A stretch of DNA of 64,000 nucleotides from positions 64,001-128,000 of the IMG/VR virus record IMGVR_UViG_3300028048_000059. One strand, given 5' to 3'. A program made the position numbers and the translations under genes. This DNA is from a virus. Lineage: Duplodnaviria > Caudoviricetes. Within the stretch, counting starts at the first letter, position 1, and each line of letters begins with the position of its first letter. The notes under the pieces are model-generated. The model had not been told where the DNA came from. It saw only the letters and a list, made by a program, of their open reading frames with translations, and made no database searches. Of this stretch, positions 11,518 to 53,385 are shown one piece after another.

Positions 11518-11546
11518 ATTATATCACAATATTTAAGAGAAGTCAA
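11518..11546 (-). promoter_or_regulatory. sigma-A promoter for dnaE (-35 overlaps recJ TGA)
   Basis: TTGACT-17-TATAAT. Confidence 0.85.
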
Positions 11547-25672: not shown

Positions 25673-28600
25673 TCACCTATTCAAAACACTAAAATCAACA
25701 TTTTCAAACAAGAAATCTCGTCTGCCATCAACTTCTGGCCCCATGAGCATCGTGATACTTTCAGACGCGGCTTCAACGTCATGAATTGTTAGCACTTCGA
25801 GCCGACGCTCAGTAGGATGAAGCATTGATTTCTCCATATCATCTGCTGAGAGTTCGCCCAACCCTTTTGCGCGTGTAATTTCCCAAGTTTCTCTACCCTT
25901 ACGAATTTTAGCTAATTCTTCATCATTATAGGCAAATAATTTATTATTACCTTTTTCAATTTTATAAAGTGGCGCGCGAAGCCAGCAAAGCCTTCCTTCT
26001 TCAATGAACTTAGGCATCAATACATAAAATAGAGTAGAAATTAGACACATAATTGAAAAACCATCTACCATTTATACCCTGACTTTAGTCATATTTTTCT
26101 AAAAGTTCTTGGAATTTATTATACTTTCTATCCATCCAGATTGTTGCATTATCATATAAATAATGATAAAATTTTATAACTTGCTGATTACCATCTAATC
26201 TCCAATACCAAGTATGCTCACGTCGTTCTTCTTTATAAACACGCCCCATTTTTATTACAGAATATATCCATTCTACAACCGGCTTTGTAGTTGTAAAACT
26301 AACGTTAAAACTTATATGGGTTGAATCCTTTCTCGGGCACCTGCAAAGCGCTCCATCTCCATCAAAGAATCCACGTAAGAAATGTCTGATTAGAGCTTCT
26401 GGAACATGTTTTGGTGGTTCTAGAATAAGAGTTTTTTGTTTAACACAACCTTTATCAATTAAATCATTTACAGTTTTTTGAGAACATAATACTAACTTAT
26501 GTAGTGTTTGTTTGCCATATCTATTTCCACTATAATCATATAGAATCGGATTCGTTGCTTTTAAACTCACTTTAAATTTTTCAATTACGTCAGCACTATC
26601 TTCAGCAACGGTAATTCCAAAATGATCTTGCCCATAATTATTTTCATTATTGACAATATAACCGTCAGCAAACATAAAGCCTAGCCAATAAGCTTTTTCT
26701 TCAGTATCAATTGTCTCAAAAAAATTTTCATCATGAAAATATTTTCTGTAATGATTACCTTTTGTTGTTTTAACCCCTATGCTTTCTAACCATTTACTTA
26801 TTCTTAATCTAGTATGATGGTATTTCTTTTCTAATTCTCGTAATGAGACATTATTTTTATAATCAGCAATTATATTTTGTTTTTCTTCTTCGGATAGTAA
26901 TTGTTCTAAGGTTTTTCCTGCCATACTATCACCTCCAATTCTAAGGTGATATAGATGGGTAGTGGTTCGTATAATTTCTTCCAAAAATTTTATCGGGATT
27001 AGACTATACCATCTTCTTATTTCTAAGAAGTCCTTATTATAGTCGTTGAACGTCTCTCCTGTGGGGAGATTTCGCTGCGTTTGGTTACCCAATCCTTTAT
27101 GATTTTACCATACCGAAGCCGTTACTCTTCGCCGCATTTATATTACTATAAATGTTTGGTTATAAAGGCTCTAAGGGAGTTCCCGCAATTTAAAGGATTT
27201 AAAGCGGACCTAGAAGGTTAATCCGCATCAGTGGCAATAGCAACTTTACCATAATTTAATTTTTTACTATTATATCTTTCTTGAATGCCGCATCCAAGTG
27301 CCATAATAATATCAGACACTTCTTGGTTTTCTAGGCACTCGTCAAGCGGATGCTTTAACAGATTTTTTACTTTACCTCTAACTGCATATAGGGCTTCATT
27401 CATTACATTTCGAGCAGGCATAAGGCCGCCAAGGGCTGAATTTCCCTCGCATATAATAAGCATAGAATCCTGTCCATGCTTTTCGCAATCTTTAAATTTA
27501 TCAGAAGAAGTGATTTTTTGCTTTTTATGTTCAACCTCTTTCTTTTCCATATTAAGAACCGCTTCTCTTGCTTTATCAGCGGCCTGCTCTGCTTTCTGTT
27601 CCTTTACTAGCATAGCAAGAATTTTTTCAAAATCAGCACGATTTTTAACAATCCAATCCTTAATTGCATCAGTAAACACAGTTTGTGTCATTCCACGCAA
27701 TTCTTGATTTTGAATTTTATCCTTAACCTGATTCTGGTATACCGGATGCGGATGCTTAATATTAATAATTGTGACAAGACCTTTACGAATCATATCACCA
27801 TCAAAGCTCTCTTTTACTTGATCATTGATAGTCCGCGTAAATGCGGCCTTCATACCAGAACTTGGAGTGCCGCCGCCACTATTTAAAGCGCCATTCGAAA
27901 AAACATAGCACTTTTCTTTTCCAGAAGTCCACTGCGCAAAAACTTCAATATCGATATCTCCATCAAAATGCTTATTAGCATAAATATAGTTTTTATGTAA
28001 TGGATTGCGAATTTTTGTCGCGGCGAAATCTCTTAGTCCGTTCTTTGATAAAAAGACTTCTACATTCTCCATATTATTATAAAGAACAAAGCTAACATTT
28101 GGAATAAAATAACTAGTTAATTCCAATTCTTCTTTGATACGTTTAAAATCGAATGCAGGAGTAGATTCATCAATGTGAAAAATTTTCTTATCTGGTTTAA
28201 AATAAATATGCGTGCCAGTTTCTTTCGTTGCGCGCTTACGAACGGCTTTTTTTGATTGCGGAATGCCATCTTTAAATTCCATATACCATTCAGCGCCATC
28301 TCTCATAGTCCATACTTTAAATTCTTCTGAACATACGCATACAGTAGAGGCGCCAACACCGTGCATTCCACGAACACGAGAATAGTTACTGCTTTCAAAT
28401 TTTCCCGATGAGTGAGCGGTTGTGTATAATTCAATAAGTACTTCTTCGCAATCTTTATTCGCTCCTCTTGGCACTCCCGCGCCATGATCAAAAATATCAA
28501 TTGCGTTATCTTGTACATTCACTTCAATACGGTCGCCGCGTCCCATGATGGCTTCATCGCATGAATTGTTAAGAATTTCAAGGAAACAATTAAAAACTGC

Positions 28601-28693
28601 ATCCTGTCCATCAGCACCGATATACATGCCCGGCGTCATGCGGGCCGCAGTCCGAAAGTCTCTTACTTGAATTGAATTTGCATCATAAGCCAC
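25673..28693 (-). CDS. gyrB: type IIA topoisomerase B subunit (GyrB/ParE-like), two exons (27221-28693 and 25673-26068)
   Basis: PGMYIG, EILNNS, GMHGVG, EGNSA, RGK, TDAD|VDG restored on splicing, PLY, KGLGE. Confidence 0.92.
26069..27220 (-). mobile_element. group I intron in gyrB carrying a LAGLIDADG endonuclease
   Basis: GCGGAU| pairs with GUCCGC; P = AATTGCGGGAA, Q = CGCAGC, R = CAACGACTA, S = GGTATAGTC; terminal G. Confidence 0.92.
26085..26924 (-). CDS. intron-encoded two-motif LAGLIDADG homing endonuclease
   Basis: KAYWLGFMFADG and HFLRGFFDGDG; GGAGGTG RBS before MAGKTLE. Confidence 0.88.
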   Translation of the reverse strand: MAGKTLEQLLSEEEKQNIIADYKNNVSLRELEKKYHHTRLRISKWLESIGVKTTKGNHYRKYFHDENFFETIDTEEKAYWLGFMFADGYIVNNENNYGQDHFGITVAEDSADVIEKFKVSLKATNPILYDYSGNRYGKQTLHKLVLCSQKTVNDLIDKGCVKQKTLILEPPKHVPEALIRHFLRGFFDGDGALCRCPRKDSTHISFNVSFTTTKPVVEWIYSVIKMGRVYKEERREHTWYWRLDGNQQVIKFYHYLYDNATIWMDRKYNKFQELLEKYD

Positions 28694-43033: not shown

Positions 43034-43062
43034 ATTATAGCATAGATTTAGGGTGAAGTCAA
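43034..43062 (-). promoter_or_regulatory. sigma-A promoter
   Basis: TTGACT-17-TATAAT with TG. Confidence 0.85.
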
Positions 43063-47146: not shown

Positions 47147-47241
47147 AAGGTTCTCCTTTTTTATATAAATTGCCGCAGTTAAACGTCGCGGCTTACGCGC
47201 TCCCCAAGGTACGCATTGTTAAGAGGCGTGGGCAAGTCTAT

Positions 47242-47315
47242 TGGCTGGGGACGAAGGAATTGAACCTTCACGCTTCGGGTCAAAGCCGAATGCCCTCCCA
47301 TTAGGCTAGTCCCCA
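47242..47315 (-). tRNA. tRNA-Gln(UUG)
   Basis: Cloverleaf, TTCGG-CT TTG AC-CCGAA, GGTTCAATTCC, CCA. Confidence 0.9.
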
Positions 47316-47319
47316 TTGT

Positions 47320-47390
47320 TGGTGGCGAGGATAGGATTCGAACCTCGTGCTTATTAGGCACGCGAGCTGACTACATGCTCAATCCTCGCG
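47320..47390 (-). tRNA. degenerate initiator-like tRNA, anticodon AAU, shortened variable/T-stem junction
   Basis: CGCGAGG...GAGC/GCTC D-stem, CGTGC-CT AAT AA-GCACG, AGG TTCGAAT CCT, ACCA. Confidence 0.55.
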
Positions 47391-47709
47391 ATATGCAGAC
47401 GGTTTTTCCACAGCATATAGTGAGGAAGTACCGACAAACCCCGATGCATCGTGAGCGCAATTATTAGTCTTTCACCCAGATTTTCACTGGGACTACCTAC
47501 TGCGTATCGCTCAGCCGCCACAGTGCCAGAGACTTCTTTTTTGGGTTCTAACGCGACCCGTGGTGAGGATCTGTGCAGGCAATCTCCACGAAGACGGTTG
47601 GTTCTTTTATATACCGCATCTCTAACTACGGTTCCTAACCTGCCCTCTATTGACTTACCATACTGGCAGGTCGCAAAGACAGCGAAGGGATTAAATGCCC
47701 TATTGGGCA
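47391..47709 (-). ncRNA. unclassified structured RNA between tRNA-Lys and the degenerate tRNA
   Basis: GC-richer stretch with many stems (TGCCC/GGGCA, CCTGCC/GGCAGG, ACCGTA/TGCGGT, CGTGG/CCACG, TAGTC-CCAG/CTGG-GACTA, TGAGCG/CGCTCA). Confidence 0.55.
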
Positions 47710-47784
47710 TGGTGGGAGCACGGGTACTCGAAACCCGAAGGGCAGATTAAAAGTCTGTAATGTTTCCTATTACATCATACTCCC
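47710..47784 (-). tRNA. tRNA-Lys(UUU)
   Basis: CAGA-CT TTT AA-TCTG, TTCGAGT T-loop, GGGAGTA/TGCTCCC, CCA. Confidence 0.85.
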
Positions 47785-47804
47785 ATAGAAAATAATAACT
47801 TATT

Positions 47805-48113
47805 TTACACACCCATCATGCAATTATTGCAAATTGGTAGAATCCATCCGGTTGTATAGTGAGCCGCAGGTGCGCCGCATTTTACACAAACTTTTCCACT
47901 CTTACTTTCGTACCGCTCTTCGATAGCTTCGATGGCAGAAAAGCAACCAGTTGCGCACTCACTATATACACGCATTTGTCCCCACTTCTCTTTTAGCTCT
48001 ATGATACGATAAGTAGGGTCGGCCGCCATGCATTCGTCAATCATAGCTTTTGCAAGTGAATGCCAACCATCTGGTAGTAGTTCAATCCATTCATAATTAC
48101 TCATTTCTTCCAT
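47805..48113 (-). CDS. conserved phage protein
   Basis: PDGW...KEKWGQMRVY...C.KCG...GWI..IC..C. Confidence 0.7.
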   Translation of the reverse strand: MEEMSNYEWIELLPDGWHSLAKAMIDECMAADPTYRIIELKEKWGQMRVYSECATGCFSAIEAIEERYESKSGKVCVKCGAPAAHYTTGWILPICNNCMMGV

Positions 48114-48535
48114 TCGCTTACCTCAATTCCATGCTCACAAAGCCATTGTTGAATTATACGTCTCTCACTACATGGATTTTGCGGAGTTTCATACACTAAG
48201 AATGCAAAATCTACATGTGATAAATTTTCTTCTTGTTTAATTTGTTCTTCTAAGCGCGATAAATTTGTAATAAATTTTTGAAAATCAATTTTATCCAATT
48301 GCTTCTTATAAGCAATTAAAAATTGACAATCATTTGGATGCTTTGGATTACATTTACCATTACACAATCCATCACAACTATGTCCCGGTTTAAGCGGCGG
48401 ACAGTCAATCCATAGCGCGCCATTTTTATCGCGGCCCTTTTGGAGCCACTTAGGATTCCAAACTGCGGTTGAACATCCTACCAACGTTGGCGGAAAATTT
48501 CTTAATTGAGCAAAATATGATGTATATAATTTCAT
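48101..48535 (-). CDS. DUF488-like protein
   Basis: LYTSYFA...P.W...L.P...YE.P...CSER..I..WL. Confidence 0.6.
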   Translation of the reverse strand: MKLYTSYFAQLRNFPPTLVGCSTAVWNPKWLQKGRDKNGALWIDCPPLKPGHSCDGLCNGKCNPKHPNDCQFLIAYKKQLDKIDFQKFITNLSRLEEQIKQEENLSHVDFAFLVYETPQNPCSERRIIQQWLCEHGIEVSEWKK

Positions 48536-48544
48536 AATCGATGC

Positions 48545-49126
48545 GAAAATACCCGTCTTAATAAAATCATTGCGGCCTTCGCCATACTTGTATTATTCTT
48601 CTAACATATTCAGTCACGTTGCAGATAGAGGCTGAGCAACAGGTGATCGGCCTGCACTTCTCTACCCTTTGAACCAACGAGGAGGTTGCTTACTCCCAAA
48701 TTTCACCCGAACCATTCAGCAAATAACGCAAAATGCGCAACTTATTATACTACTTTCTCGCTGCTTTGGGCTACTTTCACCCCAAACCTTACTTATAGAC
48801 CATTTCTGGCTTTCAACAGCAAAAACATCTTATGGATTTTCTTGAGTTTGATACAGTCTCCGGCTAAACCCTTATCAAGATTCAGTCTACGCTTTTAACG
48901 CCTGACTTCTATTATGATGCCGTAAGGAATGGTACTTTTGTTAGCGAATAACCAAGCGCATGCTCATAACATTAGAAATTTCTTCCTATCGCTCATCATC
49001 GCTGATTTTGCGGCCGCGTTAAGTAAGTATCCCAACCTAACGTATGGCTGTTTTGCGAGCATCCTAAGCAGTGTGGTTAGCACTTCTGCACTTAGTTCAA
49101 TCATTTTATTAAGACGAGTATTTTCA
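48545..49126 (-). ncRNA. large ornate ncRNA, ROOL-like (~582 nt)
   Basis: 28-bp terminal inverted repeat closing a 580-nt ORF-free region, internal GCCATAC/GTATGGC pairing, own sigma-A promoter, phage tRNA neighbourhood. Confidence 0.65.
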
Positions 49127-49147
49127 TCCTCTCTTTGTTATGTATTT

Positions 49148-49176
49148 ATTATACCATAAATTTTAAATAAAGTCAA
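49148..49176 (-). promoter_or_regulatory. sigma-A promoter of the large ncRNA
   Basis: TTGACT-17-TATAAT with TG. Confidence 0.85.
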
Positions 49177-49400
49177 CTCTTTTTTGTAATAAATTTCATC
49201 TCAATTTTAGTTCCCCCTGGAATATCAAAATCAGAGAAATAATCTGGTGGAAGCTCACAAATAATACTGGAACCTTCGATATTGAATCTATTACAATACT
49301 TTTCAAAACCGTTGCCAATAAGAGTTTTCATTAGCCACTTGTGAATAGATTTAATAAACTCAGTCTTAGTGGCGGCCGCAGTAAGAACTTTCTTTTCCAT
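49173..49400 (-). CDS. hypothetical protein
   Basis: ORF behind its own promoter. Confidence 0.6.
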   Translation of the reverse strand: MEKKVLTAAATKTEFIKSIHKWLMKTLIGNGFEKYCNRFNIEGSSIICELPPDYFSDFDIPGGTKIEMKFITKKS

Positions 49401-49424
49401 ACTCTATCCCCTTTCAACATATTT

Positions 49425-49453
49425 ATTATAACATAATTTTTATTTAAAGTCAA
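49425..49453 (-). promoter_or_regulatory. sigma-A promoter
   Basis: TTGACT-17-TATAAT. Confidence 0.8.
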
Positions 49454-49458
49454 ATATT

Positions 49459-49533
49459 TGGAGCCACAGACCGGAGTCGAACCAGTAACCTAATCATTAC
49501 AAGTGATTTGCGCTGCCATTGCGCCACTGTGGC
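49459..49533 (-). tRNA. tRNA-Thr(UGU)
   Basis: AATCA-CT TGT AA-TGATT, GGTTCGACTCC, CCA. Confidence 0.92.
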
Positions 49534-49558
49534 ATAGAATGCGGGATGGGCCCGCATT

Positions 49559-50095
49559 TTAGAAGGGAAGTACCATATCGTCTGTGCTCGCCTTATAAGA
49601 AACTGGCTTATCTGTGCAATAAAATACACCTTCGCGTTCTACAAAAATTTCCTTTGCGATCTCTTGATATAGAGTTGAGCATTGTCCATAATAGTCTCCG
49701 AGGTCATCCGTATAGAACTGTACTACACGATTTTGGAAAACGATATAATACATATTGTTTGAAAATACACAAGGGAGAACTCGGGTAAAATTTAACGCAG
49801 GATTACCCTCAAAGGCCGTAATGAAAAGCTCATCAATGTCCATCTTTGTCGGACGGCGTAGGGCCGCCACGCCATTGGCCGGCACGACAGTCACCTTGAC
49901 AGTAACATTGCCAAAAGTCTTCTCTGGAAGCAGAATCTGCGCAATTGCATCTGCCTTTTCGCCATCTTCTACATATACCTTAATTTCAGGAGTAGCCTCA
50001 TCATAAATTACATGCACCTGATCATCATTCTTAAACATTGCATGAATCTGGCGGTAAAAAATTGTCCATGGAGCAGAGAGTTGAAACGTTGCCAT
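49559..50095 (-). CDS. conserved phage protein of unknown function
   Basis: LSAPW...FGNV...AFEGNP...VVQFY.DDL.D. Confidence 0.7.
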   Translation of the reverse strand: MATFQLSAPWTIFYRQIHAMFKNDDQVHVIYDEATPEIKVYVEDGEKADAIAQILLPEKTFGNVTVKVTVVPANGVAALRRPTKMDIDELFITAFEGNPALNFTRVLPCVFSNNMYYIVFQNRVVQFYTDDLGDYYGQCSTLYQEIAKEIFVEREGVFYCTDKPVSYKASTDDMVLPF

Positions 50096-50200
50096 AATTA
50101 TTTTACCTCATTTCTTAATTATAAATAGGAGCATATTGTGCTTGCTTAACACGTGACCAAGAAGAAGAAAAAACAAGATGAGTGCGGCGCTTAGTCATAA

Positions 50201-50491
50201 TTAATTATCCTCCTCAATATCCTTGAATCGGTCCTTATTACGTCTATCACGAATAGGCGCGGTGTCAGCCCGCGGCGGCTTGTTTGGATTTTCCTTTCGA
50301 TCAAATTGCTCTTTAAGCCGCGGCTCAATAGGCGAATTTTTTGAATAAAAATGTCTTGGCTTACGGAATTCAGTCACATCGTACTTGTCACGTAGAATGT
50401 TTTCACGCTTACGCGCATACTTCCACGCTTGCTTACGCTTCTTTGAGATTTCATCAACAAAAACAGGTGCCTCAAAAATATTGTCTTCCAT
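50201..50491 (-). CDS. basic hypothetical protein
   Basis: ORF with AAGGAG RBS. Confidence 0.6.
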   Translation of the reverse strand: MEDNIFEAPVFVDEISKKRKQAWKYARKRENILRDKYDVTEFRKPRHFYSKNSPIEPRLKEQFDRKENPNKPPRADTAPIRDRRNKDRFKDIEEDN

Positions 50492-50500
50492 AATTACTCC

Positions 50501-50713
50501 TTAAAATTCATCTTCTAGATCTTCATCTGTGACAACACCATCACGATCATCCATAATATAGAACTGAACAGTATCGACTGCATCTCCGCCATAATAATGA
50601 ATAAGCTTATCAATGGCTTCACCACAGCTATAACCATAGCAGAAACCTTTTTCTTCCACATTATCATGCTTGATAACATCATCGAAATATTTAATTTTGT
50701 AACGAAGCGTCAT
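50501..50713 (-). CDS. hypothetical protein
   Basis: ORF behind promoter 50749-50777. Confidence 0.6.
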   Translation of the reverse strand: MTLRYKIKYFDDVIKHDNVEEKGFCYGYSCGEAIDKLIHYYGGDAVDTVQFYIMDDRDGVVTDEDLEDEF

Positions 50714-50748
50714 TTTATTTTCTTTTCCTTTCTCTCGTTTATATAATT

Positions 50749-50777
50749 ATTATACTATAATTTGGGCAAGAAGTCAA
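50749..50777 (-). promoter_or_regulatory. sigma-A promoter
   Basis: TTGACT-17-TATAAT. Confidence 0.8.
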
Positions 50778-50989
50778 ATATTTTGTTGCATCCAATTCCA
50801 AAGAGCTGCGCTTGAACAAGTATAAGTTAGCATATCATTTAGATTCCGTACCAACCTAACTCCTTCTACTGCTGAATACTTACCAGAACGAACATCTTGC
50901 ATAACCCAATAATAAAGATTAAATACTTTCTGTTCATAAGTGAGTTTATTCCAAGAATCTCTGTCCATCATCTTGTTTGCTCCCTTCAT
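50774..50989 (-). CDS. hypothetical protein
   Basis: ORF behind promoter 51001-51029. Confidence 0.55.
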   Translation of the reverse strand: MKGANKMMDRDSWNKLTYEQKVFNLYYWVMQDVRSGKYSAVEGVRLVRNLNDMLTYTCSSAALWNWMQQNI

Positions 50990-51000
50990 TTGATATATTT

Positions 51001-51029
51001 ATTATACCAGAATTTTTATGGTAAGTCAA
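51001..51029 (-). promoter_or_regulatory. sigma-A promoter
   Basis: TTGACT-17-TATAAT with TG. Confidence 0.8.
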
Positions 51030-51468
51030 ATAAATATTTTTCAAAATTCTCTAATATGAATTCTTCTTCTAAGATTCGTTTACCCCAACTGAATCTTTCA
51101 TTATAATAGCCTTCGTTTAGCAGCGAAATGACAACTTTATGTTTCCCGCTAGAACAGTGAATAAAATAATTATTGCCAATATAAATACCAACATGATCTG
51201 AGAGGTCGCCATCTCCGCGATTTGTATTAAAACACACAATATCGCCTTCTTTTAATTGCGCAATTTCATTTATGGTGCAATAATTATTTGAATAGCCAAT
51301 TTTCTTTGCAGAATGTGGTAAATCAATATCAAAAGTTTGTTTATAACAAAAAACCACAAAACCAGAACAATCAAATGTTTTTGGTCCTGCGGCGGCAAAC
51401 CTATACGGTTTATCTAATTGTTGAGTGCATAAAGTGAGCAACATTACGATTAATGTAATGAATTTCAC
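51016..51468 (-). CDS. NlpC/P60 (C40) peptidase
   Basis: PY...GP..FDCSGFV, GDIVCF, HVGIYIG, FIHCSS. Confidence 0.9.
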   Translation of the reverse strand: MKFITLIVMLLTLCTQQLDKPYRFAAAGPKTFDCSGFVVFCYKQTFDIDLPHSAKKIGYSNNYCTINEIAQLKEGDIVCFNTNRGDGDLSDHVGIYIGNNYFIHCSSGKHKVVISLLNEGYYNERFSWGKRILEEEFILENFEKYLFDLP

Positions 51469-51929
51469 TGCTCTTGCTCCTCTAACATTTTTATTGTATT
51501 TAACATAATTTGTTTTAATTGATTGTCAATTCCAAAGCGTTCAGCATTGAGTTCAATGCTTTTTAATAAATTTCCATTTTTATATCGCTCACTAGATGCT
51601 TTCCAGTCGGCAATCATTTCCATAATATCCACTAAATTCATTCCTTCAATTCCATCAGGAAAATGTTGCGGATGATGCCTATTAACAGCATAATGATGTT
51701 CCAATGCCGGCTGCAATTCTTTTAAATTTTTTTTATATTCTTCTGATCCATATTCTAATTGAGAAATATTATCAGAATGATCTGCAAAGAGTTGAAGTTC
51801 TGGGGCAGTTAGTTTGCTCGCGTCATGTGATAAACCACGATCGGTTAGTTTGTCGGTAAATATGCGTAAATATTTACGGACTTTCTCAATGTGATCGTAT
51901 ATATCAAGACGACAACTATTAATGTCCAT
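51465..51929 (-). CDS. HD-like phage protein (DUF5662-like)
   Basis: HI..V...HDASK...E...HHY..NRHHP.H...M.L.D..EM.ADW. Confidence 0.75.
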   Translation of the reverse strand: MDINSCRLDIYDHIEKVRKYLRIFTDKLTDRGLSHDASKLTAPELQLFADHSDNISQLEYGSEEYKKNLKELQPALEHHYAVNRHHPQHFPDGIEGMNLVDIMEMIADWKASSERYKNGNLLKSIELNAERFGIDNQLKQIMLNTIKMLEEQEQ

Positions 51930-51972
51930 ATATCTTCCTCCTTTAAATAAAAAAGCACAGCTAAAAGCTGTG

Positions 51973-52293
51973 CTAAATTTCCTTATATCCGTAATGAGTA
52001 AGAAGCTGCCGCATATTTGCCGCGCCAACAGGGTTCATGCTGTGTATGCGGAAATACAGATGCGGAAAATTGTGTTTAATAATCCACATACAAACATCAT
52101 ATCCAGTTCGTGCAGATTCACCAAGGTCATGATCTAAATCAATAATAACTTGATGCCCTTGCGCCTGAGCAAGAATATGAACGGCTTCTTCATAAGAGCG
52201 GACAACATAAGGAATCCAATGTTCAGTATTTAAATATTGACGGAACCAAGTATCATCCTCACGAATATCGTCAAGATAGATATAATAATTCAT
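51973..52293 (-). CDS. cyclic-phosphate-processing receiver-like domain protein
   Basis: YLDDIR...VRSYEEA...DLDHDLG...TGYD...IHSMNPVG..NM. Confidence 0.75.
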   Translation of the reverse strand: MNYYIYLDDIREDDTWFRQYLNTEHWIPYVVRSYEEAVHILAQAQGHQVIIDLDHDLGESARTGYDVCMWIIKHNFPHLYFRIHSMNPVGAANMRQLLTHYGYKEI

Positions 52294-52320
52294 ACTTTTA
52301 GTTCCTTTCTTTGTTACATG

Positions 52321-52395
52321 TGGTAGGACGTGAAGGAGTCGGACCTTCGTAACGATCTTATAAGGATCGCGCACTGACCGTTATGCGAACGTCCC
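52321..52395 (-). tRNA. tRNA-Ile(UAU)
   Basis: CGATC-CT TAT AA-GATCG; GAAGG TCCGACT CCTTC; CCA. Confidence 0.85.
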
Positions 52396-52399
52396 ATAA

Positions 52400-52764
52400 A
52401 ATGCGGTTCCTCGCAAGCGAGTCGCCGCAAGTGTAAGTTTTAATCGCGTATTAAAACCTACGGGTGCCAAAGATTTACTCCTCTGGCTTAGCGACTATAT
52501 CAGTAGTTCTACTGCCAACCTCTCAATTACGCCCAAGTTGGTGAGCGGGTAGCTTGCTTGTGGTATTTCCGGATATACCTATCGTCGTAAGCAACGACGG
52601 CTTCTCATAACGAGGGAAATATATCAATAACGCTTTCCATTTTTATTGATATTCGCATTGCTCGCAAGCCTATTTACTGCGCGCTAGATGGGCGGCTTGA
52701 TTCCCTAAAACTGTGAACCGTGTTGGAATTGCACCAACAATATAATGACTTTCTGAGCGGTTCA
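52400..52764 (-). ncRNA. unclassified multi-hairpin RNA beginning with a tRNA-minihelix-like element
   Basis: About ten consecutive stems, no ORF, located between two tRNAs. Confidence 0.55.
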
Positions 52765-52848
52765 TGGTCCTCCTACTCAGAGTTGCACTGAGACGCCTTT
52801 CGGCACTTGATTTTGAGTCAAGCGTGGCTGCTATTACACCATAGGAGG
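52765..52848 (-). tRNA. tRNA-Leu(CAA)
   Basis: CTTGA-CT CAA AA-TCAAG, variable arm GCC-GAAA-GGC, CCTCCTA/TAGGAGG, ACCA. Confidence 0.85.
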
Positions 52849-52910
52849 TTAAACGAGAGCGTATGTACAGACGGTCTCTCCGCTCTTTCTACACATGGCA
52901 GATGAGCTAA

Positions 52911-53255
52911 TGGTGCCGGTGACCGGACTTGAACCGGTACGACCTCGCGGTCAGCGGATTTTCTTACTACTCCATATTACTATGGCCGTATAATTACGTT
53001 GTAGTCTGGACTATGTTTTTACCATATCTTGCGACTTAGGTAGTTCCTATATAGTCTCTACACATTTAAATTGGCTGAGGAGACTCTTGTACACTCATTT
53101 AATTGCTTACATTTATCTGTCTAGCAAACCAATTATTTAGCTCGGCGTAATCCAAATTGGACTTCCGCCGAATTAGGGAACATTCACATTAGAACTTTCG
53201 TATCTAAGTGCTCAATTTAATAAGTCCGCTGTGTCTGCCATTCCACCACACCGGC
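52911..53255 (-). tRNA. tRNA-Leu(UAA), split by a group I intron (exons 53222-53255 and 52911-52962)
   Basis: Exons join to GCGGA-CT TAA AA-TCCGC, with variable arm, GGTTCAAGTCC and ACCA. Confidence 0.92.
52963..53221 (-). mobile_element. group I intron in the anticodon of tRNA-Leu(UAA) (259 nt)
   Basis: CUU| pairs with GAG; R = TAGAGACTA, S = ACATAGTCC; terminal G. Confidence 0.9.
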
Positions 53256-53356
53256 ATAATACCTGATGTAATTTTAAATTACTTTACTGCATAATCTTAT
53301 ATTACAAAGAAAATGCTCTGATGGCTATCAGGTGTAGCCTTCTTTCTTATAAAATT

Positions 53357-53385
53357 ATTATATCATAATTTCACAAGCAAGTCAA
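53357..53385 (-). promoter_or_regulatory. sigma-A promoter of the tRNA cluster
   Basis: TTGACT-17-TATAAT with TG. Confidence 0.85.

Follow-up and report, generated by a model that had tools for sequence, protein, structure and literature searches.

The window analysed here (64,000 nt; bases 64001 to 128000 of the 157,489-bp IMG/VR virus record IMGVR_UViG_3300028048_000059; CheckV completeness 91%, GC content 38%) carries an island of about 6 kb (window 47166-53385, genome 111166-117385) that belongs to a known kind of locus, the phage tRNA, ROOL, and RNA-repair region. Every feature of the island lies on the minus strand, which carries nearly all long open reading frames (ORFs) of the window, and its six tRNA genes are the complete tRNA set of the genome. 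In our view, the island of this ~157-kb phage is probably a mosaic of independent tRNA and accessory-RNA modules, not one machine. Its most likely function is the supply of tRNAs for A-ending codons, perhaps together with tRNA replacement and repair under host attack. A preliminary description of this DNA had proposed one integrated system acting against host anticodon nucleases. Our co-occurrence and synteny analysis found that ROOL, RNA B, and the genes for cREC and DUF5662 assort independently among relatives, the first of two outcomes that the description itself had named together as speaking against its proposal, and the integrated reading is therefore unsupported.

The relatives include 42 IMG/VR loci, mostly from phages of 130 to 190 kb and including 11 complete genomes, retrieved by alignment of the family of a 144-amino-acid (aa) protein encoded in the island. 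The presence of the 144-aa gene in all 11 complete relatives thus follows from the retrieval criterion. Near relatives are contigs 94 to 97% identical to the window, among them L009, L018, L084, L085, L086, L090, and L091. The use of a 178-aa island protein and of tail proteins as IMG/VR queries yielded no useful relatives. At the same genome position, the relatives carry much larger tRNA arrays.

Assortment and replacement of modules among relatives

Among the 11 complete relatives, ROOL is found in seven, cREC in four, and DUF5662 in nine, and the gene order and spacing of these elements and of the 144-aa gene vary from genome to genome; in five records, ROOL and cREC lie 6 to 16 kb apart. 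When this genome is included, RNA B is present in 5 of 12 complete genomes, ROOL in 8, and both in 2, indicating that RNA B does not track ROOL. On contigs of 107 to 185 kb that carry DUF5662 homologues at 62 to 70% identity, genes for DUF5662, PTH2, DUF2828/DUF7788, cREC, and RNA_ligase (PF09414) are scattered among arrays of 12 to 20 tRNAs. A DUF2828 search of this genome returned no match, the control genomes likewise giving none.

Segment replacement is visible among the near relatives. In L084, L085, and L009, the segment comprising tRNA-Leu(UAA), its intron, the following spacer, and tRNA-Leu(CAA) is replaced by a GIY-YIG-bearing segment, which in L084 also holds another tRNA-Leu(CAA). 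An acceptor-stem stub is found in L009, and tRNA 3' fragments are found in L018, L086, and L090. The interval holding tRNA-Lys, RNA B, and a pseudo-tRNA occurs in four states, that of the window being one of them: L018 and L084 have tRNA-Lys, an HNH_3 gene, and a tRNA 3' fragment; L086 has tRNA fragments, RNA B, and an intact tRNA-Met; and L090 and L091 have only about 105 nt of tRNA fragments. tRNA-Lys(UUU) is absent from L086, L090, and L091. These comparisons show that each module can be acquired, lost, or exchanged independently of the others, often at the sites of homing-endonuclease genes.

Structured RNAs of the island

The three large structured RNAs of the preliminary description are borne out by our analyses, ROOL by its Rfam score, RNA B by covariation, and RNA A by its fold and the sparing of its stems. 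Comparative sequence evidence identifies RNA B (47390-47709) as a predicted structured RNA family of about 300 nt, newly found here, with covarying helices and without a match in Rfam 15. Megablast and blastn searches against GenBank phages gave no match, exact 21- to 23-mers were absent from JGI metagenomes and IMG/VR, and blast of the 42 whole related records returned only tRNA T-arm matches, missing the homologues present there. A hidden Markov model (HMM) of the window and L086 sequences, run with nhmmer, reached a homologue in L058, and a second round reached more. The resulting covariance model R2 (seven training sequences, 308 positions, 26 pairs) scores the window copy at 225.9 bits. 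Of the 43 records searched whole, 11 contain a match spanning the whole model (203 nt long in G017), as do two additional IMG/VR contigs, which were reached via a conserved 17-mer and score 60 to 61 bits. Five of the 11 lay outside the training set, namely G034 (196.7 bits), G004 (126.8 bits), G005 (55.9 bits), G037 (42.6 bits), and G017 (37.3 bits).

In the alignment of 12 RNA B sequences, 88.5% of cells are paired and 12 of the 26 pairs vary on both sides. The covariation score is 0.417, compared with 0.204 ± 0.022 in shuffles (0 of 500 as high) and at most 0.17 when the pairing partners were slid. The alignment was fitted to the R2 model, which favours structure, a bias tempered by the slid controls and by the members outside the training set. 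The consensus includes one long-range helix, and conserved blocks include CGGUAUAUAAAA, CACAAUGCAUUGGGGUU, and GGAAAA. The family is kept across phages whose 144-aa proteins share only 52 to 69% identity, and no Rfam 15 family overlaps RNA B in the window (E ≤ 10) or in six other members.

RNA B is also characterized by its position. Of the 11 members examined beyond the window, 10 have a tRNA gene closely 3' of the RNA, at distances ranging from a 6-nt overlap to 161 nt, and this gene is tRNA-Ser(GCU) or tRNA-Ser(ACU) in seven, tRNA-Met(CAU) in two, and tRNA-Ile(UAU) in one. The partial match in G017 has no downstream tRNA in its locus, and the window copy is followed by a decayed CAU tRNA. 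We rejected the possibility that RNA B is a protein gene: neither a ribosome-binding site nor a Pfam match was found for the overlapping 118-aa ORF, and its GC fractions at codon positions 1, 2, and 3 are 0.56, 0.47, and 0.46, compared with 0.47, 0.37, and 0.30 in real genes. The single-sequence fold of RNA B was also discarded (z-score of -0.83, with 9 of 15 paired-position substitutions in L086 disrupting pairs), and the family consensus was used instead. Weak abiF-like matches of about 27 bits lie just upstream of the RNA B members in L095 (1348-1384) and L099 (1880-1916, minus strand).

RNA A (52396-52764) is a noncoding stretch of 369 nt with a fold z-score of -2.35 that fills exactly the space between the CCA end of tRNA-Leu(CAA) and the 5' end of tRNA-Ile. 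It starts with a minihelix (52714-52764) composed of a 7-bp acceptor-like stem and a T-arm-like hairpin, in agreement with the minihelix-like element noted earlier, and the stem shows a compensatory A-U to G-C double change among relatives, with a G-U intermediate in L091. RNA A is present at about 95 to 98% identity in L009, L084, L085, and L091. Beyond near-identical genomes, no homologue was found by megablast and blastn against GenBank phages, in the 42 whole related records, or by an HMM-level search; exact 21- to 23-mers found nothing in JGI metagenomes and IMG/VR, and Rfam gave no match at E ≤ 10. The three variant haplotypes of RNA A differ at 19 substituted sites, 12 of them unpaired, 5 pair preserving, and 2 pair breaking, and for the eight differences of L009 the probability that random substitutions break no pair is 0.007. 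We take these patterns as modest evidence that the stems may be under selection; RNA A may also be a mere processing spacer. A paralogous relationship among RNA A, RNA B, and ROOL was rejected, as they share no repeats except promoters.

ROOL (RF03087; 48554-49119) is matched at 283 bits (gathering score, 99.1) over model positions 1 to 574, that is, at full length, and has its own promoter at 49148-49176. Its occurrence near phage tRNA islands has already been described (PMC5737381; 10.1101/2024.12.08.627333), and cages formed by other members have been seen by cryo-electron microscopy (10.1101/2024.12.08.627333). The 144-aa gene was considered as a ROOL partner and rejected, since the two are no longer adjacent at 88% identity or in distant relatives; a 75-aa gene was ruled out because it travels with the 144-aa gene.

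At the downstream end of the island, a two-hairpin motif of 77 nt (47166-47244; 88.4 bits under model R1) scores 80 to 99 bits in 12 relatives' loci, giving 13 sources with the window. Its sequence identity is 87 to 92% in relatives with about 70% protein identity, and it adjoins the 5' end of tRNA-Gly(UCC) in 10 of the 12 loci. In its alignment, 97.5% of cells are paired, six pairs vary on both sides, and both hairpins covary, with a covariation score of 0.30 versus 0.163 in shuffles. In IMG/VR the motif occurs in 14 contigs, all of this clade, and it was not found in the species-genome contigs searched. Its match to abiF (RF03085), at 29.4 bits, misses the gathering score of 37 and comes without the abiF gene context. 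The spacer after tRNA-Leu(UAA) (52849-52910) holds a conserved 39-nt block (52871-52909) that is 90 to 97% identical in at least eight relatives (e.g., L012, 9323-9361; L031, 10835-10873; L026, 12022-12052). There, the block is found between tRNA-Ser(GCU) and the 77-nt motif; the two motifs are therefore neighbours in those relatives, while they are 5.6 kb apart here.

tRNA genes, transcription units, and protein genes

The six tRNAs of the preliminary description were recovered, five of them called by both ARAGORN and Rfam covariance models: tRNA-Gln(UUG) (47242-47315; 61.9 bits), tRNA-Lys(UUU) (47710-47784; 50.4 bits), tRNA-Thr(UGU) (49459-49533; 66.3 bits), tRNA-Ile(UAU) (52321-52395; 55.8 bits), and tRNA-Leu(CAA) (52765-52848; 44.1 bits), which has an unusual T loop. 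The sixth, tRNA-Leu(UAA) (52911-53255), is split into exon 1 (53222-53255) and exon 2 (52911-52962) by a 259-nt intron (52963-53221), and its in-silico splicing yields a perfect 86-nt tRNA, called as tRNA-Leu(UAA). The six read the codons UUA, UUG, AUA, ACA, AAA, and CAA. In the 99 long ORFs, TTA accounts for 41% of Leu codons, AAA for 72% of Lys, CAA for 79% of Gln, and ACA for 38% of Thr, each being the phage's top codon for its amino acid, and the minority codons ATA and TTG account for 21% of Ile and 16% of Leu, respectively. Since four of the six tRNAs thereby read the phage's most used codons, codon supply is the simplest role for the set. A degenerate tRNA had also been described, and we agree: the pseudo-tRNA at 47324-47389 scores 28.5 bits, below the RF00005 gathering score of 29, lacks a variable loop, carries the anticodon AAU (A at position 34), and has an incomplete cloverleaf. 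As L086 (94% identical) keeps an intact tRNA-Met(CAU) at this position, it can be regarded as a decayed tRNA(CAU) gene.

The intron of tRNA-Leu(UAA) is inserted between U34 and A35, exon 1 ending in U and the intron in G. The self-splicing nature attributed to it earlier is consistent with these ends and with the perfect spliced tRNA, but its score against Rfam Intron_gpI (RF00028), 46.4 bits (E value of 1.5e-9 in 8 kb), falls just short of the gathering score of 50. Intron-bearing homologues occur in L052 and L056, and at least eight other relatives have an intronless tRNA-Leu(UAA). The intron homologue is about 475 nt longer in L056 (7177-7995) and L052 (7266-8080) than in the window, an increment that may represent an inserted ORF or an additional domain. 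With its patchy distribution and variable length, the intron behaves as a mobile element in the clade. The present intron shares with the group I intron of cyanobacterial and plastid trnL(UAA) genes both its host gene and its site between U34 and A35, and it shows a group I fold signal, although it is phage borne and its Rfam score lies slightly under the gathering score. A second group I intron, at 26980-27257 on the minus strand of the window (56.4 bits, above the gathering score), is placed between the ORFs 26085-27092 and 27218-28693, partly overlapping them, and therefore probably splits a protein gene.

Other RNAs were observed in relatives. A tRNA with the anticodon CUA, labelled Pyl by ARAGORN, occurs in the same gene order in the 170-kb relative L006 (7724-7799) and in L007 (4039-4114); it may be an amber suppressor, hinting at TAG recoding there. 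Subthreshold matches to YrlA, a Y RNA-like family (30 to 36 bits; gathering score, 69), recur in the tRNA islands of L015 (3817-3889), L020 (135-208), L028 (42-141), L033 (1039-1137), L061 (826-890), and L100 (1417-1478); in part of these phages, the islands also hold genes for DUF2828/DUF7788, PTH2, and RNA ligase. A drum RNA is present in the tRNA island of L008 (16136-16247; 70.8 bits; gathering score, 43).

The island contains five sites that agree with TTGACT-17-TATAAT in 11 of 12 positions, and four of these carry an extended -10 TG. The motif is found across the genome and can therefore be considered the phage's standard host-type promoter: the window contains 14 TTGACT-N17-TATAAT copies against 0.02 expected, all on the minus strand (e.g., 2029-2057, 11518-11546, and 43034-43062), most of which have an A-rich spacer and a TG one base ahead of TATAAT. 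P1 (53357-53385), a consensus match with TG, marks the start of the first unit, which would comprise tRNA-Leu(UAA) and its intron, tRNA-Leu(CAA), RNA A, tRNA-Ile, and cREC and would end at a terminator-like hairpin internal to the island (51954-51974). The last unit would run from the promoter at 49148-49176 through ROOL, the 144-aa and 102-aa genes, tRNA-Lys, RNA B, the pseudo-tRNA, tRNA-Gln, and the 77-nt motif, and it appears to continue towards the gene for a Bmp-family binding protein downstream of the island. With five promoters and an internal terminator, the island appears to consist of several units, at least five of them separately promoted, and not of one operon. Tail, CBM_5_12, and endolysin genes lie upstream.

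The cyclic-phosphate receiver-like protein reported earlier is a member of cREC_REC (PF20274; 106 aa, 51973-52293), with an E value of 3.5e-21 and 76.1 bits against a cutoff of 27. cREC is predicted to process or open 2',3'-cyclic phosphates (PMC7824862, PMC9503650) and is experimentally uncharacterized (PMC9503650). The protein described as HD-like is clearly a DUF5662 member (PF18907; 155 aa, 51465-51932; E value of 1.8e-34, 119 bits against a cutoff of 27) with invariant or near-invariant His and Asp columns (H14, H36, D37, H79, H80, H86, H87, D102, and D109). Its HD fold is less firm: the predicted model is all-helical, with a mean predicted local distance difference test score (pLDDT) of 72.5, and HD domains are its only full-length fold matches, at weak Z scores of 4.6 to 5.6. 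The next gene encodes an NlpC/P60 peptidase (51016-51468; Pfam E value of 7.6e-23) with no evident RNA tie, followed by four small genes of 71, 70, 96, and 178 aa (49559-50989), served by promoters at 51001-51029 and 50749-50777, that have no Pfam, NCBIfam, or PHROG match. The 75-aa gene (49173-49400) has its own promoter (49425-49453) and accompanies the 144-aa gene in relatives (DNA matches in 28 loci).

The 144-aa gene forms a pair with a gene for a Cys-rich 102-aa protein (47805-48535), their reading frames overlapping by 13 bases, and relatives both near and distant retain this pairing. Members of the 144-aa family share a C-S-E-R motif, in which the Cys, Ser, Glu, and Arg residues are invariant, together with a Cys-rich insert. 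For the 144-aa protein, the DUF488-like label of the preliminary description stays no more than a lead: the protein has no Pfam match at E ≤ 0.01 and no NCBIfam match, none of 120 of the 436 listed homologues carries a Pfam domain, and the link to DUF488 (PF04343/PF22751) comes from a language-model feature lead in Atlas (score of 0.91). Its model (pLDDT of 84) gave weak best PDB matches (Z ≤ 4.8) that include PTP-like phosphatases and RapZ-C, and PDB sequence searches with this protein and with DUF5662 returned nothing. About 35 kb from the island, and not together with it, the genome encodes an Rnl1-family ligase (PF09511, 60.3 bits; genome 152482-153096) and a polynucleotide kinase-like AAA_33 kinase (PF13671, 85.2 bits; genome 150489-150875; ORF of 165 aa). 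Judged from family membership, the genome holds dispersed parts of a predicted heal-and-seal pathway, comprising cREC, the HD-like DUF5662, the kinase, and Rnl1.

Competing explanations and known systems

Host sigma-70-type RNA polymerase would start at five or more strong phage promoters, and RNase P and 3'-end processing would excise the tRNAs, freeing RNA A, RNA B, and the 77-nt motif lying between them. The tRNA-Leu(UAA) precursor would remove its own group I intron, as the in-silico splice suggests. The six tRNAs, which match the codon use of the phage, would top up decoding and, by analogy with published work on other phages, could stand in for host tRNAs that anticodon nucleases have destroyed. 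If the family predictions hold, cleaved RNA ends would be prepared by cREC, and perhaps by the HD-like DUF5662, for resealing by the kinase and Rnl1.

Several observations weigh against a mosaic of independent modules. All four cREC-positive complete relatives also have ROOL (hypergeometric probability of about 0.1, which is not significant and is uncorrected for shared ancestry), and ROOL stands directly upstream of cREC in G004 and G040, the two distances being about 30 and 480 nt. cREC itself appears to belong to one transcription unit with three tRNAs and RNA A, and the stretch 52777 to 47805 of the window is kept by all near relatives that span it. A joint function of cREC, DUF5662, and the island RNAs is conceivable. 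A fully integrated counterdefence, in which the RNAs and proteins would jointly protect, repair, or scaffold tRNAs against host anticodon nucleases (for instance, with ROOL or RNA B assemblies holding tRNAs while cREC, DUF5662, the kinase, and Rnl1 repair them), could further draw on the ROOL cages suggested to enclose tRNAs (10.1101/2024.12.08.627333), on the position of the RNA B family beside tRNA genes, and on tRNA-Lys(UUU), reported as an anticodon-nuclease target (PMC12409363). Yet the components assort independently, and transcription would start at several promoters within the island; genomes 94 to 97% identical lack RNA B and tRNA-Lys; RNA A is limited to one narrow lineage; and the ligase and kinase are 35 kb away. 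We therefore consider such a system very unlikely. What stands of the earlier proposal of joint tRNA protection or repair is the presence of predicted RNA-end-processing genes, one of them putatively cotranscribed with tRNAs, with Rnl1 and the kinase elsewhere in the genome; the single system does not.

The island could conversely be a decaying codon-supplement cluster, with RNA A, RNA B, and the small motifs as functionless spacers or wreckage of tRNA genes and mobile elements. Its tRNAs match the preferred A-ending codons, they number 6 compared with 12 to 25 in the comparable stretch of relatives, and RNA B is dispensable in near relatives. Wreckage of tRNA genes is visible in the pseudo-tRNA, the minihelix, the 3' fragments of L018, L086, and L090, and the stub of L009. 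Neutral DNA, however, would not keep sequence blocks and covarying helices across 52 to 69% identity of the 144-aa protein, as RNA B does; moreover, the 77-nt motif covaries, substitutions in RNA A spare its stems, and ROOL is a bona fide conserved RNA. We find decay an unlikely account of the island as a whole. It is equally doubtful, in our estimation, that RNA B is a new class of phage RNA forming a 5' extension of tRNA precursors, with RNA A and the 77-nt motif as further such classes, and that these RNAs play an active role in tRNA biology like ROOL and GOLLD, e.g., as nuclease decoys or shields or as processing or repair scaffolds. We thus favour the mosaic of independent modules. That its parts are not passed on together speaks against viewing such islands as single operons for defence or counterdefence.

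That phages use tRNAs of their own to counter anticodon nucleases is an established idea (PMC10264068, PMC11555353, PMC12409363), and the work on PARIS AriB proposes that phage tRNAs evade tRNA-targeting defences via anticodon-loop mutations (PMC12409363). The present phage likewise encodes tRNA-Lys(UUU) and other U34 tRNAs; here, however, codon matching alone accounts for the tRNA set. In the RNA-repair neighbourhoods of jumbo and medium phages, cREC stands alone with a T4-like ligase and a nucleotide kinase (PMC7824862; PMC9503650), and the same components are found in this genome; the relatives also link cREC to an RNA_ligase (PF09414) gene, as in those neighbourhoods. In contrast to them, cREC here would be cotranscribed with tRNAs and adjoins DUF5662, and the island, which is the part of the genome that was searched for such partners, shows no sirtuin, Nudix, or 2H protein.

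The island also resembles that of a well-studied phage. T4 has a tRNA cluster, repairs PrrC-cut tRNA-Lys with Pnkp and Rnl1, and carries the homing endonuclease SegB in its tRNA region (see also PMC13096335). As in T4, the tRNA cluster is accompanied by homing-endonuclease genes at variable points (GIY-YIG and HNH in near relatives), and the genome encodes an Rnl1-family ligase and a polynucleotide kinase-like protein. Unlike T4 Pnkp, the 165-aa kinase ORF appears too short for a fused phosphatase domain; cREC and the HD-like DUF5662 would have to heal the ends, and the ligase and kinase are encoded outside the island.

Large structured RNAs beside phage tRNA genes, such as GOLLD and ROOL, have long posed a puzzle of function, even now that their shapes are known. 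Our analysis indicates that, in one clade of 130- to 190-kb phages, at least three more conserved RNA elements occur in a tRNA-gene setting, one of them the RNA B family, and natural variants with and without RNA B, the Leu tRNAs, and ROOL, near-identical genomes among them, offer ready-made comparisons for studying RNA function. As described for ROOL and GOLLD beside the tRNA islands of phages and prophages, a full-length ROOL lies inside a phage tRNA island here, and RNA A and RNA B share this context as large, GC-richer noncoding RNAs between tRNA genes. They differ from ROOL and GOLLD in matching neither of these nor any other Rfam 15 family and in being about half the size of ROOL, and the RNA B family sits directly 5' of a tRNA gene, whereas ROOL has its own promoter.

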